Shown here: positions 1 to 9,630 of the stretch, in pieces | How positions within the stretch are numbered: position 1 is the stretch's first letter | Layout of the letters: each line of letters starts with the position of its first letter | NCBI GenBank assembly: GCA_963798465.1 | Contig: CAWCTC010000001.1 | Span: forward strand, 592,465 to 656,464 | Reading direction: 5' to 3' | Origin: an uncultured bacterium | GTDB lineage: Bacteria > Patescibacteriota > Minisyncoccia > Phycocordibacterales > GWA1-40-21 | Length of the DNA stretch: 64,000 nucleotides | Made by a program: the position numbers and the translations under genes | The notes under the pieces: generated by a model | Told to the model about the DNA's origin: nothing | What the model saw: the letters and a program-made list of their open reading frames with translations, nothing else | Databases searched by the model: none

Positions 1-192
1 ATCAAAAGCAAAAGACGACTTTCCGGATCCGGAAATTCCCGTGATGGCAATCATTTTATTTCTGGGCATCTCAACATTTATATTTTTCAAGTTGTGAGTT
101 CTAGCTCCTTTTACTATGATTTTGCCGGCTTTTTCGTCAAAAATTGTTTTGCCTGCCCCGTGTGAATTTTCACTTTGTTTTGATTTATTCAT
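1..192 (-). CDS. uvrA: Excinuclease ABC subunit A, N-terminal fragment (continues beyond window start)
   Basis: Minus-strand ATG at 192..190. Translation is [64 protein letters not shown], which has the UvrA N-terminal signature VKGARxHNLKNI and Walker A GxSGSGKS. The first ~19 aa are an extension encoded by the H2 element. Confidence 0.85.
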
Positions 193-539: not shown

Positions 540-722
540 TTATAATCTTCTTCTTCCAACATGCCATCCTCCGCAAAACTTGCACGGATAAAAATGACAT
601 TGCTTGTTCTGGTCTTTTCCGTTTAATCTCAAACCCCGGACATGAAGAAAAGCTGCTTCCTTGCTTTTATGCCGTATCTTTCCTTCACAGCTTCTCCGGC
701 GAATTCTCCGTTTGCTCGCCAT
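540..722 (-). CDS. Small basic Cys-rich (zinc-ribbon-like) protein, 60 aa
   Basis: GGAGG lies 8 nt upstream of ATG 722; the track start at 731 is a GTG abutting the SD. C-terminus is CHFYPCKFCGGWHVG. Its own TTGTAA-N17-TATAGT promoter-like site lies upstream. Confidence 0.6.
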   Translation of the reverse strand: MASKRRIRRRSCEGKIRHKSKEAAFLHVRGLRLNGKDQNKQCHFYPCKFCGGWHVGRRRL

Positions 723-793
723 TTTTTTCACCTCCTCTTCTCAAATTTAATCCAAAAAAAACTATACTCCAAATTTTATATTTTTACAAATAA

Positions 794-2371: not shown

Positions 2372-2508
2372 TCCGAGAAAATTTTTGCCAATAAAAATTG
2401 TTTGTGTCGACTTCATAAGTACTTAAATTATAACATAACTAGATAAAATTGTGAGTTTGCTCAAATATGCAAATTTTTAACAAACATTGGCAAAAACTTT
2501 AACGGATT
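2372..2508 (-). repeat. H1 element copy B
   Basis: Arms ATCCGTTAAAGTTTTTGCCAAT ... ATTGGCAAAAATTTTCTCGGAT. The closing pair changes in a compensated way (ACCCG/CGGGT becomes ATCCG/CGGAT). The interior carries TGTTATAAT. Confidence 0.6.
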
Positions 2509-2535
2509 AATTATAACATAGAGAAAATAAGTATA

Positions 2536-3780
2536 TTATGAAAATGGTATTTCCTTTTTATCCATTGTTATAAATGACTCTTTGAAGATTTTTTTATAAG
2601 TTTTCCTAAATAAAACTGTTTTTCTGAACTCTTTGAAAAGTGGCCAATCTTTTTTGTATGCATCTTTCATATCCTTTGTTGGACCAATTTTAAGCATCAT
2701 TTTAACTGCCTCTTTTAAATCATCTTTTATAATGGCTACTGCAAGTTTTAATTCATCATCCTCTGCTGACCAATCGCGACTATTTATAAGGTCAATAGCC
2801 ATTTTTTCGGATTTTCCAAATTTCATTGATAATGCCCTGTTAATAATAAACATGAGTTTAAATTTTTCTGAGGAAACTTTTTCAAGTTTATCTGAAAAAT
2901 CTAAAAGCCTTCCAGCAGATAAATTATTATCGTTGTTTAATAAATCTGCTGTCATATTTAATAAGTAAGTATCTGCATCCTCAATTTTATTTTCTTCCAG
3001 TTTTCTCCACAATGCTTGACTCAATTCAATTCCAATACAGAGACACAAATAACAAGAATCCAAAAAATAACCGGGTGTTAGTTCAAGTTTATAACCAACT
3101 TTGATTTTTTTACTCAGTGGAATATTATTCTTTCTACATATATTTATGTATTGTTTAGTCACAATACCATCGGAATGAACAAAAAGATTTCTTCTTTCAG
3201 TTAGCTCTGTAAACTTTTTAATACCGATTTCATTAAAGTTACATTTAATTTTCAATTTTTCTTCTAACCAATCAAAACATTTTTTTCTTCCATCATACAA
3301 TAACTGTTCAATTTCTTTATTTACTAGATATTGTCTGACCTCGGTTATACTTGTAAGCTCTAAGACCTCTGAGGTGCTTATTTTTTTCTCTGTATTATTT
3401 AATAAAAAATTATTTTTTTCAAAAACAATATTTAGTAATCCTCTTAGATGATTATCAAAATAACTGACCAAAGAAATGAAAAGACCTCTTGGTACTGCGC
3501 GTATTGCTAATGAACTATTTCTGACTTTCTTTTCTAAATTCTCCAGAGTTTCCCAATCTTTAATTTTGACTAAATATTCATTCGCAAATTTCTTTTTGGT
3601 CTTTGCAGACAAAAAATTGTCCAAATTATTTTTACCATGTTTAAATTCTTTAATAAGAGGCGCCATTATTAAAGGCAATGAAAATATTAAACAATCTATA
3701 TTATATTTGAAATTCTCAGTAGCCAACTCAAAAGTTGATATCTTTATTTCTTTTTTTTTATTTTTCTTATTATCAGTCAT
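2536..3780 (-). CDS. Hypothetical protein with HEPN-like Rx4H motif (possible RNase / abortive-infection type)
   Basis: TELTERRNLFVHSDGIV fits the HEPN R-x4-6-H signature (RiboL-PSP/Abi-like context). The C-terminal half is helical and repeat-like. No TM segment or signal peptide. Confidence 0.4.
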   Translation of the reverse strand: MTDNKKNKKKEIKISTFELATENFKYNIDCLIFSLPLIMAPLIKEFKHGKNNLDNFLSAKTKKKFANEYLVKIKDWETLENLEKKVRNSSLAIRAVPRGLFISLVSYFDNHLRGLLNIVFEKNNFLLNNTEKKISTSEVLELTSITEVRQYLVNKEIEQLLYDGRKKCFDWLEEKLKIKCNFNEIGIKKFTELTERRNLFVHSDGIVTKQYINICRKNNIPLSKKIKVGYKLELTPGYFLDSCYLCLCIGIELSQALWRKLEENKIEDADTYLLNMTADLLNNDNNLSAGRLLDFSDKLEKVSSEKFKLMFIINRALSMKFGKSEKMAIDLINSRDWSAEDDELKLAVAIIKDDLKEAVKMMLKIGPTKDMKDAYKKDWPLFKEFRKTVLFRKTYKKIFKESFITMDKKEIPFS

Positions 3781-3796
3781 GTTGAATATTATATAA

Positions 3797-5831
3797 TTAT
3801 TTTTTCTTTTCCACCCTCTCCTTCAAAACCTTAATCTCATCTCTCAATATCGCCGCGGTTTCAAAATCCAAAATCTTCACCGCTGCGTTCATTTGAATTT
3901 CTTTTTGTTTTATCAGCTTCATTGGGCTCTTTTTCATCATTTCCTCATCAATTCGAACAAGCTCTTTCACGGCTTTGTCATGATCGCTTCTCATATGGTC
4001 TGTGATATCGTGAATCTTTTTGATAATCGTTTTTGGAGTAATGCCGTGCTTTGTATTGTAAGCAATTTGTTTTTCTCTTCTTCTATTTGTCTCACCTATC
4101 GCTCGTTCCATTGAGCCGGTAATACTGTCAGCATAAAGCACCACGCGTCCGAGCAACATTTCTCGCCGCACGTCCGATGGTCTGAATAAGCGAAGTATCG
4201 CTGAACGCAAAAATCCTTCCTTGTCCGCATCAAGAATTCCGATAAATTCAACTTCCGGCAAATCCAAACCTTCTCGCAAAAGGTTTACTCCGACAAGACA
4301 ATCAAACTTCCCTTTTCTGAAAGTTCGTAAGAATATCTATTCTGTCTATTGTTTTTATTTCGCTGTGCAAATATTCTGCTTTCACACCTTTTTCTTTCAA
4401 ATATTCGCTCAAATCTTCCGCCATCTTTTTTGTGAGAGTTGTGGCAATGACTCTTCCGCCGTTTTTCACAACTTTTTCTGTTTCTTCTATAAAATCAAAA
4501 ACTTGAGATTTATTTTTTCCTTTTACTTCGGTAATCGGCTTTACTTCCACAATCGGATCAATCAAGACCAGTCGGACGGATAATTTGCTCCACAATTTTC
4601 TCTGAATTTTCTTTTTCATAATCTCCCGGCGTGGCTGTAGTATAAATAATTTGATTTACTCTTTCTTCAAATTCATCAAACTTCAAAGGTCTGTTGTCTT
4701 TTGCTGATGGAAGACGAAAACCATAGTCAATCAAAGTCTTTTTTCTTGAAGCATCGCCGGCATACATTCCTCTTATCTGAGAAATAGTGACGTGTGATTC
4801 ATCTATAATAGTCAGAAAGTCTGGAGTTCCATCTTCTTTCTTTGGAAAATATTCCAGAAAGTATCTGGTGCTTCGCCCGGTGCTTTGCCGGAAAAATGTC
4901 TTGAATAATTTTCAATTCCATTGCAATAGCCGACTTCTCTTATGAGCGACAAATCGTAAGTTGTTCTTCTTCGAAGTCTTTCTGCTTCAAGATTCTTTCC
5001 CAGCTTTTTTTAATTCTTCAAGTCTGTTCTTCAAGCTCAGCTTTTATACTTTTGAAAGCTCTTTCTTGCTGTTCTTTGTCTGTAATAAAATGTTTTGCAG
5101 GAAAAATAAAAGTTGATTGTATTTCATCTTCAACAAGTTTTCGAGAAACTGAATCAATTCTTGAAATTTTCTTTATTCTATCTTCAGCAAAATCTAAGCG
5201 AATCAAAATCTTTTCATTTACCGGCATGACTTCAATAGAATTTCCAATAGCACGAAAAGTTCCCGGCTTTATATCGGAATTTGTTCTTTCAAAATGAACA
5301 TTGATAAGTTTTTTTATAAGGTCTTGCCTCGTAGTTTTTTCTCCAACTTTCAATTTTAATATTTACTTTTTCATATTCTTCTGGTGAACCCAAACCGTAA
5401 ATACAAGAAACCGATGCGACAATAATCACATCTTTTCTCGTAAGAAGTGCTTGCGTGGAAGCATGGCGAAGTCTGTCTATCTCTTCATTTATCATCGCTT
5501 CCTTTTCAATATAAGTATCGGTGACGGCATATAAGCTTCCGGCTGATAGTAGTCGTAATAAGAAACAAAATAATGCACGGCATTGTCTGGGAAAAATTCT
5601 TTGTACTCTTGTGCGAGCTGAGCTGCGAGAGTTTTGTTGTGAGCGATGACAAGCGTCGGCTTTTGAATTTTTTCAATAACATTTGCAACCGTAAAAGTCT
5701 TTCCGGAGCCAGTAACGCCAAAAAGAGTCTGCTTTTTCAAGACCTTTTTCTAACCCCGCAACCAACTCTTTAATTGCATTCGGTTGATCCCCCGCTGGCT
5801 TATATTCTGCTTTGATTTTGAATTTTGACAT
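3797..5831 (-). pseudogene. uvrB: Excinuclease ABC subunit B, disrupted by about 10 frameshifts
   Basis: Pieces occur in shifting frames: [66 protein letters not shown], and the C-terminal UVR domain. At 4290-4300 an extra A in an A-run breaks QKGKFDCLVGVNLLREG. Confidence 0.85.
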
Positions 5832-5899
5832 ATTAGAACACTAAAATAGCACAAAAAACACTTTTTGACATATCTCTGCTCTCGCAAGGATAGTCTTTT

Positions 5900-6463
5900 C
5901 TAGTTACATAGCCAATTTTTGTATTCCTCAAACTCTTTAGTTTGATCTTTATTTAAAAAATCACCATCAAGGTCGCGAAATTTTTTGTCTATGACAACAA
6001 CGCCTTTAGTACGAATAGAACATAATATGTGATCAATAAACAGATTAGTTTTATCAATAAAACTATCTATATCAATTTTTTGTGCTTCTTTGTTAAGTTT
6101 TTTTGAATCTTTGTCTAGATGTACAATAAGTTTATTTACCTGATCCTCAAATTTATCTTTCCATTCGGTAAATAAAATTTTGTGCTCTTTTTCCAATTCA
6201 TGATTTTTAACATAATTTAATAAATATGTTATTTTGTATGACCTCTCATCTGATTCAAAAAATTTTCTAAAATCAATCAACTGACCGCGAGTATAGTCCG
6301 TTATATAATAAGAGATAAATGCATTATTATATACTGCATCTTTGGTATCTTTGCCTACCAAATTCTTTTCAAACAATCTAAAAAGTGCCCTTCTTCTTAA
6401 AATAATAATCATCAACTCATGGAATACGCTAATATATTCTTGTATCTTTTTTGATTCTTCCAT
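5900..6463 (-). CDS. Hypothetical protein, weak AbiU2/HEPN-like pattern with the catalytic Arg replaced
   Basis: QVNKLIVHLDKD resembles the AbiU2 R-N-K-x-x-A-H-x-D motif, but Val replaces Arg. It lies immediately upstream of uvrB on the same strand. Confidence 0.3.
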   Translation of the reverse strand: MEESKKIQEYISVFHELMIIILRRRALFRLFEKNLVGKDTKDAVYNNAFISYYITDYTRGQLIDFRKFFESDERSYKITYLLNYVKNHELEKEHKILFTEWKDKFEDQVNKLIVHLDKDSKKLNKEAQKIDIDSFIDKTNLFIDHILCSIRTKGVVVIDKKFRDLDGDFLNKDQTKEFEEYKNWLCN

Positions 6464-6469
6464 TATATT

Positions 6470-7384
6470 TTAAGCACATCCAGGACCACAATATCCAGAT
6501 GATATGCGAATACCTCCTGTTGCAGAACCCGTAACCGGAACTAAATTATCTGAACTGTCATAAACTTGTATGTCAGACGAATTGATACTTGAGGAAATAG
6601 AAAACGGTGAATCATCTTTTGAATATATTAAATGTGTTCCTACCGTGTCAACTTTAACAGTAAACTGGCTAGGAATATTTGCCCCAAAGTTAGCGCCAGT
6701 TGTGTTGTCGGGAATAAGAAAAGTTGCAGTATTGCCTGATACTAAAGCGCTAGAGATTGGAGTTGTGTTTCCTTGATACAAATATGCATTAGTAATTTGG
6801 GCTGTACCACTTACATTTTGGGCTGTACCGCTTACATTAAAGTGAACAGTTAAACTATGAAGGTGTAAGGTGTCGTTCTGGCCTCTAACATCAAATATAA
6901 TTACTGGAATCATTGTTACAATACCTGAAGCAGAAGAGGGATTTTTTAAATCAGTATATATTGATGCTGTCGCTGAACTTGTTGTCTCTAACGGTTTACT
7001 GATTGTATTTTGATTAGCTTGTCCCTGTGCTATTTGTGCTGCTTGTTTATCTAACGCAGATTTAACTGCTGCGTCAATTTTTGATTGGGCATCCTCATTT
7101 TGTTGCTGAACAATTTTAGCATCTTCATCCGACTTAGCTTTAATAATGGCTTTTACCTGAGCATCAACTTTGGCTTTTATAATTGTGTCCATATCAACCG
7201 TGCTTGTTGCTTTAGCGATTGTTGATGTGGCAACAGTTGAAGTTGCAACTTTAATTACTTCTGTTTTTATTGGTTTATGAAATACGGACCAAGAAAAAGG
7301 ATTCCACCAAGAAGCAAATGCTAGGTTTGGCAAAATTAAAGAAATAAGCAAAAGAGATAAAACTAATTTATGTATTTTTTTCAC
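6470..7384 (-). CDS. Secreted or surface protein, hypothetical
   Basis: Likely GTG start at 7384 giving MKKIHKLVLSLLLISLILPNLAFA followed by SWWNPFSW. TGGTATAAT lies 7 nt upstream. Contains ST-rich and coiled-coil-like segments and a NVSGTAQ duplication. Confidence 0.6.
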   Translation of the reverse strand: MKKIHKLVLSLLLISLILPNLAFASWWNPFSWSVFHKPIKTEVIKVATSTVATSTIAKATSTVDMDTIIKAKVDAQVKAIIKAKSDEDAKIVQQQNEDAQSKIDAAVKSALDKQAAQIAQGQANQNTISKPLETTSSATASIYTDLKNPSSASGIVTMIPVIIFDVRGQNDTLHLHSLTVHFNVSGTAQNVSGTAQITNAYLYQGNTTPISSALVSGNTATFLIPDNTTGANFGANIPSQFTVKVDTVGTHLIYSKDDSPFSISSSINSSDIQVYDSSDNLVPVTGSATGGIRISSGYCGPGCA

Positions 7385-7407
7385 AAAAGTGATTATACCA
7401 CAAATCA

Positions 7408-8626
<1,219 letters not shown>

Positions 8627-8672
8627 AAGGTTAATATAACACAAAATTACTAGTTAGTAATAATAGTTTGTG

Positions 8673-8823: not shown

Positions 8824-9630
8824 ATGGAGCAAAAAAGAAAAACTGTCGGCTTAGTGCTTGGAAGCGGAAGCGACCGCGGAATGGCACATATTGGAGTTAT
8901 AAAAACTCTGATTAAAAATAATATTCCGATTGATTATATTTCCGGCACAAGTATCGGCGCCGTTATCGGAGCATATTACGCGCTTCACGGTGAAGTCGAT
9001 ATTCTTGAGGACACTTTCAAGCGTATCATGTCTCGCCCGTGGTATCTGCTCGATTTCGATTTCAAAAAACCGAATTTTCTTTCAAACAGAAATATTTATA
9101 ATCTGTTAAAATTTAATTTCTACAACGACAAAACTTTTTCTGACACAAAAATACCTCTTCGAATAAATGCCACGGATGTAGACTCCGGCAGCCAATATGT
9201 TTTCAAAGACGGAAAAATCATAGACGCCGTCATGTCTTCAATGTCGCTTCCGGGAATATTGCCACCGTATGAAATAGGAGAAAAACATTTGGTTGATGGC
9301 GGACTATCAGATGCAATTCCTGCAGATTTACTTTCTGAATTTAAACCGGATATAATAATAGCTGTAGACCTATATAATACAAAAATAGAACCTCTTTCAA
9401 AATATAATATGAGCACAGTATTGAACAGAGTTTATCAGATATATATTTCAAAACTTTCAGAATTCAGCAAGCAGAATTTCTGCAGAAACTGCGAGAATTA
9501 CATCATCATAAATCCAGATACAAAAGAAAATCTGACAAGCCTGACTTTCAAAAATATAGATAAAAATGTCAAAATCGGGACTGAAGAAACAGAAAAGCAT
9601 ATTGAGGAAATTAAAAAACTGTGCGCCTAA
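8824..9630 (+). CDS. Patatin-like phospholipase
   Basis: GSGSDRG oxyanion motif, GTSIG (GxSxG) nucleophile, DGGLSD catalytic Asp. TGATATAAT lies 9 nt upstream of the ATG. Confidence 0.85.
   Translation: MEQKRKTVGLVLGSGSDRGMAHIGVIKTLIKNNIPIDYISGTSIGAVIGAYYALHGEVDILEDTFKRIMSRPWYLLDFDFKKPNFLSNRNIYNLLKFNFYNDKTFSDTKIPLRINATDVDSGSQYVFKDGKIIDAVMSSMSLPGILPPYEIGEKHLVDGGLSDAIPADLLSEFKPDIIIAVDLYNTKIEPLSKYNMSTVLNRVYQIYISKLSEFSKQNFCRNCENYIIINPDTKENLTSLTFKNIDKNVKIGTEETEKHIEEIKKLCA

Follow-up and report, generated by a model that had tools for sequence, protein, structure and literature searches.

Two unrelated candidate HEPN genes in a housekeeping gene string of a patescibacterial contig, and the probable origin of single-base indels in the adjoining uvrB and tgt

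Introduction

The described proteins that come closest to the two genes considered here are members of the HEPN superfamily. In these proteins the Rx4-6H motif is placed at the end of core helix 3 and the start of the next loop, helix 2 carries a second acidic residue, often within Ex3[KR], and inserts are noted between this helix and helix 3 (PMC3710099). The two genes lie on the minus strand of a 64,000-nt stretch of DNA (positions 592,465 to 656,464 of contig CAWCTC010000001.1, assembly GCA_963798465.1, from an uncultured bacterium of the Patescibacteriota), which is referred to throughout as the window, and they encode a 414-aa protein (2536–3780) and a 187-aa protein (5900–6463) on either side of a fragmented uvrB (3797–5831). 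An earlier, sequence-only reading of this locus had regarded the pair as a small HEPN defence islet inserted in, or replacing, a uvr locus with a decayed uvrB. The open reading frames (ORFs), gene order and coordinates that it gave, including the 16 nt between the uvrB stop codon and the ATG of the 414-aa gene, were all confirmed by an ORF check. The overall picture that we consider probable is a different one, namely that of two unrelated HEPN accessory genes lodged in a housekeeping string, in which uvrB and the neighbouring tgt are intact and their indels are most likely consensus errors.

With regard to the 414-aa protein, the best curated match is RiboL-PSP-HEPN (PF18735; Anantharaman et al. 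2013, PMC3710099), likewise a predicted metal-independent RNase; the 414-aa family, however, has no L-PSP fusion or ParB neighbour and is extended by a helical hairpin at the N-terminus and a TPR-like domain at the C-terminus. The LA2681-type HEPN-TPR proteins (PMC3710099, Table 1) also carry a HEPN core and TPR-type repeats in one polypeptide, and this combination in a single chain suggests a sensor-plus-RNase logic, although the likeness is one of architecture alone and the LA2681 Pfam model is absent among the listed matches. The reverse transcriptase-associated HEPN proteins of DRT systems (PADLOC PDLC03820) are matched weakly, over the motif region, by 16 of 33 cores of the 414-aa family, whereas neither the window nor the annotated contexts have a reverse transcriptase gene close by.

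The 187-aa protein is most like AbiU2 (AbiUii) of Lactococcus lactis AbiU (PF18734), with which it shares a length of about 190 aa, an all-alpha composition and an invariant His that ends a long helix. It departs from AbiU2 in that the motif Arg is replaced (V109; A, V, T or I in 27 of 29 family members), and its neighbours in the window are uvrB and a gene for a 312-aa protein, restriction-modification (R-M) contexts being found for some homologues only. No AbiUi-like partner was seen in the window, where neighbours were not scanned for AbiUi homology. In Lactococcus, AbiUi alone gives resistance and the addition of AbiUii lowers it (PMC13064643), and therefore membership of the AbiU2 family does not imply an effector role. 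A likeness to HEPN-MNT toxin-antitoxin pairs is also seen in relatives of the 187-aa gene that directly follow a gene for GrpB, which has a nucleotidyltransferase fold; in the window, by contrast, the upstream gene encodes a membrane protein rather than a nucleotidyltransferase, and the 187-aa protein is without the catalytic Arg.

Results

The 414-aa protein contains the motif ERRNLFVHSDG (residues 195–205; 3166–3198), a putative RNase active-site motif of the form R197-N198-x3-H202. An alignment of 63 homologues (mean column identity 33%) has 11 invariant columns, among them E192, R196, R197, N198, L199 and H202, and as judged from this conservation the motif is the canonical R-N-x3-H HEPN motif, in which the Arg is followed by a polar residue, beyond what chance would give. 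The AlphaFold2 model of the protein (pLDDT 91.6, pTM 0.88) is all-alpha, with a long helical hairpin at the N-terminus (residues 16–122), a helix (184–203) whose C-terminal end lies at the motif, just ahead of a loop (204–208), and short paired helices in the tail (286–400), and it fits the published description of where the HEPN motif is placed (PMC3710099). At position 156, the candidate for the second acidic residue, at least 90% of the family have Glu (E156), within the consensus EKEIESLLR; the window protein reads EIEQLLY, without the K or R. The predicted TPR-like alpha-helical C-terminal domain (approximately residues 286–400; 2581–2925) was delimited from the model, from Foldseek, whose top matches are TPR proteins at non-significant scores, and from weak TPR_12, TPR_19 and ANAPC3 matches in a few family members. 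The sole near-significant structural neighbour of the model is an uncharacterised phage protein, BFVD A0A8S5NVI2 (Siphoviridae sp. ctiPM17; Foldseek E = 9e-3; TM-score 0.35 query-normalised and 0.46 target-normalised).

Taken alone, the 414-aa protein has no significant match to Pfam, NCBIfam, PADLOC or PHROG. HEPN_RiboL-PSP (PF18735) is matched by 7 of the 63 full-length family members (best E = 4e-5), and by 13 members when the search is confined to the core sub-alignment A4 (residues 90–285, 33 members; best E = 8e-6). The same 33 cores match HEPN_Cthe2314 (PF18730; 8 members, best E = 0.005), Csx1_HEPN (one member, E = 0.015), the PADLOC model of reverse transcriptase-associated HEPN (RTasHEPN; the 16 members mentioned above, best E = 6e-5) and PADLOC Csx1/Csm6 (one member, E = 8e-5), so that the recurrent matches are nearly all to HEPN models and come from two independent libraries. 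These matches place the HEPN-like core at about residues 95–285 (2926–3498). Several points weigh against the HEPN assignment: every HEPN match of the family falls under the curated cut-off; the window core itself scores 13.5 bits on PF18735 (E = 0.07), as against a cut-off of 28.4 bits, over an alignment that covers profile positions 34–162 and stops at the motif; and no relevant structure came out of sequence-profile searches of the PDB with alignments A1, A3 and A4. When the HEPN-core profile was used for a third large homology search, only further unannotated members of the family came up, and no bridge to annotated HEPN families. With the motif invariant, the sub-threshold HEPN matches recurrent and the motif at a helix end in the model, the family is nonetheless very probably one of HEPN RNases with a TPR-like sensor tail. 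The sequence-only reading, which had called the protein HEPN from the motif and guessed at a RiboL-PSP/Abi type, is upheld on both counts, RiboL-PSP-HEPN being the best-matching curated family, though below its cut-off.

The family is widely scattered. The 94 homologues in a large protein collection are all named 'hypothetical' and lack Pfam domains, and a combined pattern and tblastn scan located the gene in at least 224 of 185,579 GTDB species-representative genomes. The phyla include Acidobacteriota, Bacteroidota, Cyanobacteriota, Proteobacteria and Verrucomicrobiota, and further Chloroflexota, Actinomycetota, Firmicutes and Patescibacteria; the gene also occurs on 5 plasmids and on 13 IMG/VR viral contigs, while a search of a phage genome collection gave no match. 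No conserved neighbour gene was found across 88 loci.

The uvr neighbourhood of the family is common to three related contigs of the candidate phyla radiation (CPR) type. In one relative (L003–L006) uvrA and a 707-aa uvrB, both intact, flank a 38%-identical homologue that is encoded on the opposite strand, and the genes that follow, tgt and then an FKBP gene, keep the order of the window; in another (L009) a 48%-identical homologue is found two genes downstream of uvrA. At 58% identity, the closest homologue is situated elsewhere, between Fic, rubredoxin and MazG genes, and uvrA or uvrB occurs within 10 kb of the family in 0 of 80 genome loci; a tie of the family to nucleotide excision repair was rejected on these two observations. 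The sequence-only reading had set its islet against the case of both genes being conserved core genes beside an intact uvrB in relatives. The neighbourhood comparison comes close to that case for the 414-aa gene in the L003–L006 relative.

Some contexts of the family are suggestive of conflict. A homologue on a Crinalium plasmid adjoins a type I R-M system, another adjoins a PIN toxin gene, and at four Nostocales loci (L139, L140, L080 and L055; plasmids and contigs) a homologue belongs to a conserved operon of overlapping genes in the order helix-turn-helix regulator, TaqI-like methyltransferase, 183-aa protein, HEPN gene and 1100-aa helicase, which looks like an R-M-type defence operon. DUF262 and EVE genes are located near this operon in L140. 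On the other hand, many homologues are found among housekeeping or metabolic genes (dxr, rseP, ispG and transporter genes, for example), and a defence role is weakly grounded because several contexts are thus plain housekeeping. In view of these mixed contexts and the lack of a conserved neighbour, the family behaves as a mobile accessory gene that is usually solitary, with a moderate, unquantified association with defence genes.

The 187-aa protein, whose ORF is also 187 aa long in the independent contig L120, has FRKFFE at residues 65–70 and QVNKLIVHLDKD at residues 108–119 (6107–6142), both as quoted in the sequence-only reading; the latter holds the invariant H115, with V109 at the HEPN Arg position. 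By itself the protein has no significant match to Pfam, NCBIfam, PADLOC or PHROG and scores 9.4 bits (E = 0.9) on HEPN_AbiU2 (PF18734), the cut-off of which is 26.8 bits. Five close homologues were found, and 33 relatives by exhaustive profile search; of the 29 members in alignment A3, 16 match HEPN_AbiU2 (best E = 1e-8), two of them, P0117 and P0128, scoring 26.3 and 26.0 bits on PF18734. The hidden Markov model consensus of the family reaches 39.9 bits (E = 4e-10) over profile positions 2–176 of 193 and so lies above the cut-off. The AlphaFold2 model (pLDDT 90.4) is a helical bundle with H115 at the end of helix 88–114. The AbiU2-like layout suggested earlier from short motifs is therefore borne out at the level of the family, of which the window protein, at its 9.4 bits, is a divergent member.

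The catalytic Arg is where the 187-aa protein parts from the canonical HEPN pattern, and its absence, which means that the Rx4-6H motif is not present, weighs against reading it as a HEPN RNase. H115 is invariant in all 29 sequences, whereas the residue six positions before it is Arg only in the two most distant members, P0128 and P0129 (R-D-K-x-x-x-H); the Val noted earlier in place of the Arg is thus indeed V109, at the position where distant members have Arg. R24 and R66 are nearly invariant in the family. For the R-less Parep1/8 HEPN family, other residues have been proposed to replace the Arg (PMC3710099), and by analogy R24 and R66 could stand in for the lost residue; alternatively, the 187-aa protein may be non-catalytic.

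In most of 28 metagenome loci the 187-aa family gene comes directly after another gene on the same strand, and these partners vary. A Trypsin_2 peptidase with a transmembrane segment and a low-complexity linker precedes it in at least five distinct loci (L099, L101, L102, L104, L106, L109 and L112), and GrpB directly precedes it in L092/L096, which hold the nearest metagenomic relatives of the window protein (48–52% identity), and in L103. Other preceding genes encode an N6_N4 methylase, a ResIII helicase and a serine recombinase, and one homologue resides in an island with R-M, Eco57I, T5orf172 and resolvase genes. The Trypsin_2 and GrpB pairs may constitute a set of undescribed two-gene modules. 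In the window the preceding gene (6470–7408) encodes a membrane-anchored 312-aa protein with an N-terminal transmembrane segment, a low-complexity linker and a Ser/Thr-rich C-terminal domain, in which no Pfam or PHROG family and no recognisable domain was found. Its N-terminal layout is like that of the Trypsin_2 partners, but there is no homology to those peptidases. Only 6 nt separate its stop codon from the start of the 187-aa gene on the same strand, and the two genes are for this reason probably co-transcribed.

As to whether the 414-aa and 187-aa genes form one system, a hidden Markov model search of 123 other loci (92 with the 414-aa family and 31 with the 187-aa family) found no co-occurrence of the two, a profile-profile comparison detected no relationship (probability 1%), neither family has a conserved partner gene, and a PADLOC scan of both proteins gave no matches, the neighbours being uvrA, a response regulator and histidine kinase pair, uvrB and tgt. 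By these comparisons the two are unrelated accessory genes that share no system. The idea of a two-gene defence islet finds no support here, and its insertion in, or replacement of, a uvr locus is likewise not borne out by the 80 genome loci or by the state of uvrB.

That state was established with a frameshift-aware alignment to the UvrB of L003. The uvrB gene of the window has about ten single-base indels, namely seven insertions and three deletions, mostly outside long homopolymers (near 5735, 5526, 5342, 5020, 4989, 4858, 4563, 4319, 4200 and 4151), with no in-frame stop and no large deletion; it is 68% identical to L003 UvrB, and Walker A, DESH and the other helicase motifs are intact. 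The gene for queuine tRNA-ribosyltransferase, tgt (approximately 7418–8644, minus strand, by the same kind of alignment), on which the sequence-only reading was silent, has four single-base frameshifts (near 8343, 7679, 7609 and 7483), no in-frame stops and 55% identity to the L003 orthologue. When compared with the PDB, the frame-corrected UvrB of the window scores 805 bits (9gy7_E; next-best chain 781), whereas the intact L003 UvrB scores 727 bits on 9gy7_E and 716 on the next chain, with its best match at 733 (2fdc_A); the best scores against solved TGT are 336 bits for the frame-corrected window protein and 296 for the intact L003 orthologue. Because the corrected proteins score above intact orthologues against outgroups, there is no sign of relaxed selection in either gene; ten neutral indels should bring dozens of substitutions and several stop codons. 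A systematic error linked to CTTGAAG was considered for the three uvrB insertions that lie beside CTTGA and was rejected, as the window holds 33 copies of CTTGAAG, mostly in intact genes. This count is in itself above the 11.3 ± 3.5 expected from shuffles and probably reflects Leu-Glu codon usage.

Two independent short-read Logan contigs from run ERR11594402, L091 and L120, cover parts of the locus and were compared over 2470–3920 and 5600–7585 of the window, respectively. L091 has 0 differences over about 1340 nt, comprising the whole 414-aa gene and its flanks, and five single-nucleotide polymorphisms (SNPs; three synonymous, two conservative) in the last 95 nt of uvrB. L120 has 0 differences over the 1674 nt of the 312-aa and 187-aa genes and their spacers, and 14 SNPs, mostly synonymous, in uvrB codons 1–75. 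The accessory genes of the window are thus base-perfect against short-read contigs, A9 homopolymer runs included, and divergence rises sharply from 0% to about 6% on crossing into uvrB, which means that at least two uvrB haplotypes exist with identical accessory genes. Such mosaic identity implies co-occurring strains or recombination at the locus. Two of the 14 frameshift sites fall within L120: at the first uvrB frameshift it lacks 1 nt relative to the window, which puts codons 1–75, with the Walker A region, in a single frame, and at window position 7483 it carries an additional A, which does the same for the C-terminus of tgt. A look-up of the frameshifted tgt fragment in independent assemblies returned no record and is uninformative.

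Discussion

The indels in uvrB and tgt are most likely consensus errors from mixed haplotypes that differ by about 6% in uvrB, the one-base errors having presumably arisen when the assembly mixed reads of co-occurring strains. Two observations weigh against this account. Frames were checked at only the two sites covered, in a contig that carries a different uvrB allele, and random errors offer no obvious explanation for indels that are confined to uvrB and tgt while the intervening and adjacent 3.7 kb of accessory genes have none. A genuine, very recent and strain-specific inactivation of uvrB and tgt is distinctly less probable, though by no means negligible. The description of uvrB as dead or heavily decayed is inaccurate under either account, with stops and large deletions lacking, motifs intact, the corrected protein conserved and the frames intact in L120 where it was covered. 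The model of a two-gene HEPN defence islet in, or replacing, a decaying excision repair locus, with uvrB and tgt as true pseudogenes, draws on the same uneven pattern, that is, some fourteen frameshifts in these two genes and none in the 414-aa, 187-aa and 312-aa genes, which are moreover base-perfect in the independent contigs. It can also appeal to other large genes of the window, among them those for a ClpB-like protein, PPDK, phosphoketolase and a P-type ATPase, which are intact, so that errors are not pervasive in the assembly, and to the HEPN-like nature of both genes flanking uvrB. We hold it to be very unlikely all the same: uvrB and tgt show no stops, deletions or excess amino-acid divergence and their corrected products outscore intact orthologues, both covered sites are in frame in L120, the two families are never together elsewhere and lack PADLOC matches, and a relative has the 414-aa homologue between an intact uvrA and an intact uvrB.

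For the 414-aa protein we favour a role in conflict (abortive infection or toxin), unproven as it is, over a housekeeping one, because the gene is distributed patchily, is found on plasmids and proviruses and in some cases forms part of an R-M operon. A more specific proposal, which is tentative and on balance somewhat doubtful, makes the family an uncatalogued single-gene HEPN-TPR abortive-infection or toxin effector, the TPR-like domain of which senses an invader and unleashes the RNase; plasmids and prophages could have spread such a gene over more than 10 bacterial phyla and into tiny CPR genomes, in which it was kept beside uvrA and uvrB. That it is instead a sporadically retained housekeeping protein, a HEPN protein of RNA processing or RNA binding inherited vertically next to the uvrA/uvrB genes of this CPR lineage, would agree with the 38–48% identical homologues in the same neighbourhood of two other CPR-like contigs, with the many homologues among dxr, rseP, ispG and transporters, and with the lack of a conserved immunity or antitoxin partner and of a PADLOC family. 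We regard this as unlikely for a gene found so patchily (224 of 185,579 species over many phyla), in plasmid operons of R-M type and on 13 viral contigs, with its closest homologue away from uvr and 0 of 80 genome loci near uvrA or uvrB. The 187-aa gene could for its part belong with the 312-aa gene in a two-gene module of a sensor or effector plus an AbiU2-like modulator, like the Trypsin_2 or GrpB pairs of its relatives. The 6-nt spacer on one strand, the habitual second position of the family gene in same-strand pairs (at least five loci with a Trypsin_2 partner laid out at the N-terminus like the 312-aa protein, and two with GrpB) and the classic toxin-antitoxin layout of HEPN plus nucleotidyltransferase (PMC3710099) speak in its favour. 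Yet the partners are of several kinds, with no homologue of the 312-aa protein among them, that protein has no recognisable domain, and adjacency may be mere hitch-hiking; such a module thus seems improbable to us, to much the same degree as the housekeeping role.

Under the reading that we prefer, uvrA, uvrB, tgt and the FKBP gene would make up a conserved housekeeping string of a small, low-GC CPR genome, in the gaps of which variable accessory genes are accommodated, two of these encoding unrelated proteins of the HEPN superfamily. The 414-aa protein would most likely form a homodimer, as HEPN RNases do, and thereby build a metal-independent RNase site, which its TPR-like domain would hold inactive until a ligand or protein trigger binds; the ensuing RNA cleavage would then arrest growth, as abortive-infection and toxin effectors do. 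The 187-aa protein, a divergent AbiU2-family member, is more plausibly an RNA-binding or modulatory partner of the preceding gene, or acts through other conserved basic residues (R24 and R66), than a canonical RNase.

Both proteins are of known kinds and no new kind of system is revealed. Nevertheless, a family of about 420 aa without a Pfam, NCBIfam, PADLOC or PHROG model is a reasonable candidate for a new HEPN family and is worth including in defence-system screens, and the branch of AbiU2 associated with Patescibacteria has lost the catalytic Arg. The locus also counsels caution with pseudogene calls in metagenome-assembled genomes, since indel-riddled but otherwise conserved genes beside base-perfect accessory genes point to a consensus problem of strain mixtures rather than to decay.

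Other features of the window

The 5' end of uvrA (1–126, minus strand) was located by tblastn with L003 UvrA (residues 24–61, 82% identity) and continues beyond the window edge. Genes for a 127-aa response regulator (1109–1492) and a 246-aa histidine kinase (1542–2282) lie between it and the 414-aa gene on the same strand, and this pair is missing in the syntenic relative L003, which marks another variable slot. The ORF-poor stretch from 130 to 1100, downstream of the uvrA start, contains a 63-aa Cys-rich basic ORF (540–731, minus strand; C...C, then CxxC-GGWH). A scan for promoters and terminators gave results indistinguishable from shuffled sequence. On the plus strand, a 268-aa ORF (8824–9630) with G-T-S-I-G and D-G-G motifs was judged by eye to be patatin-like; it occupies the slot between tgt and the FKBP gene, where L003 has an unrelated 180-aa gene.

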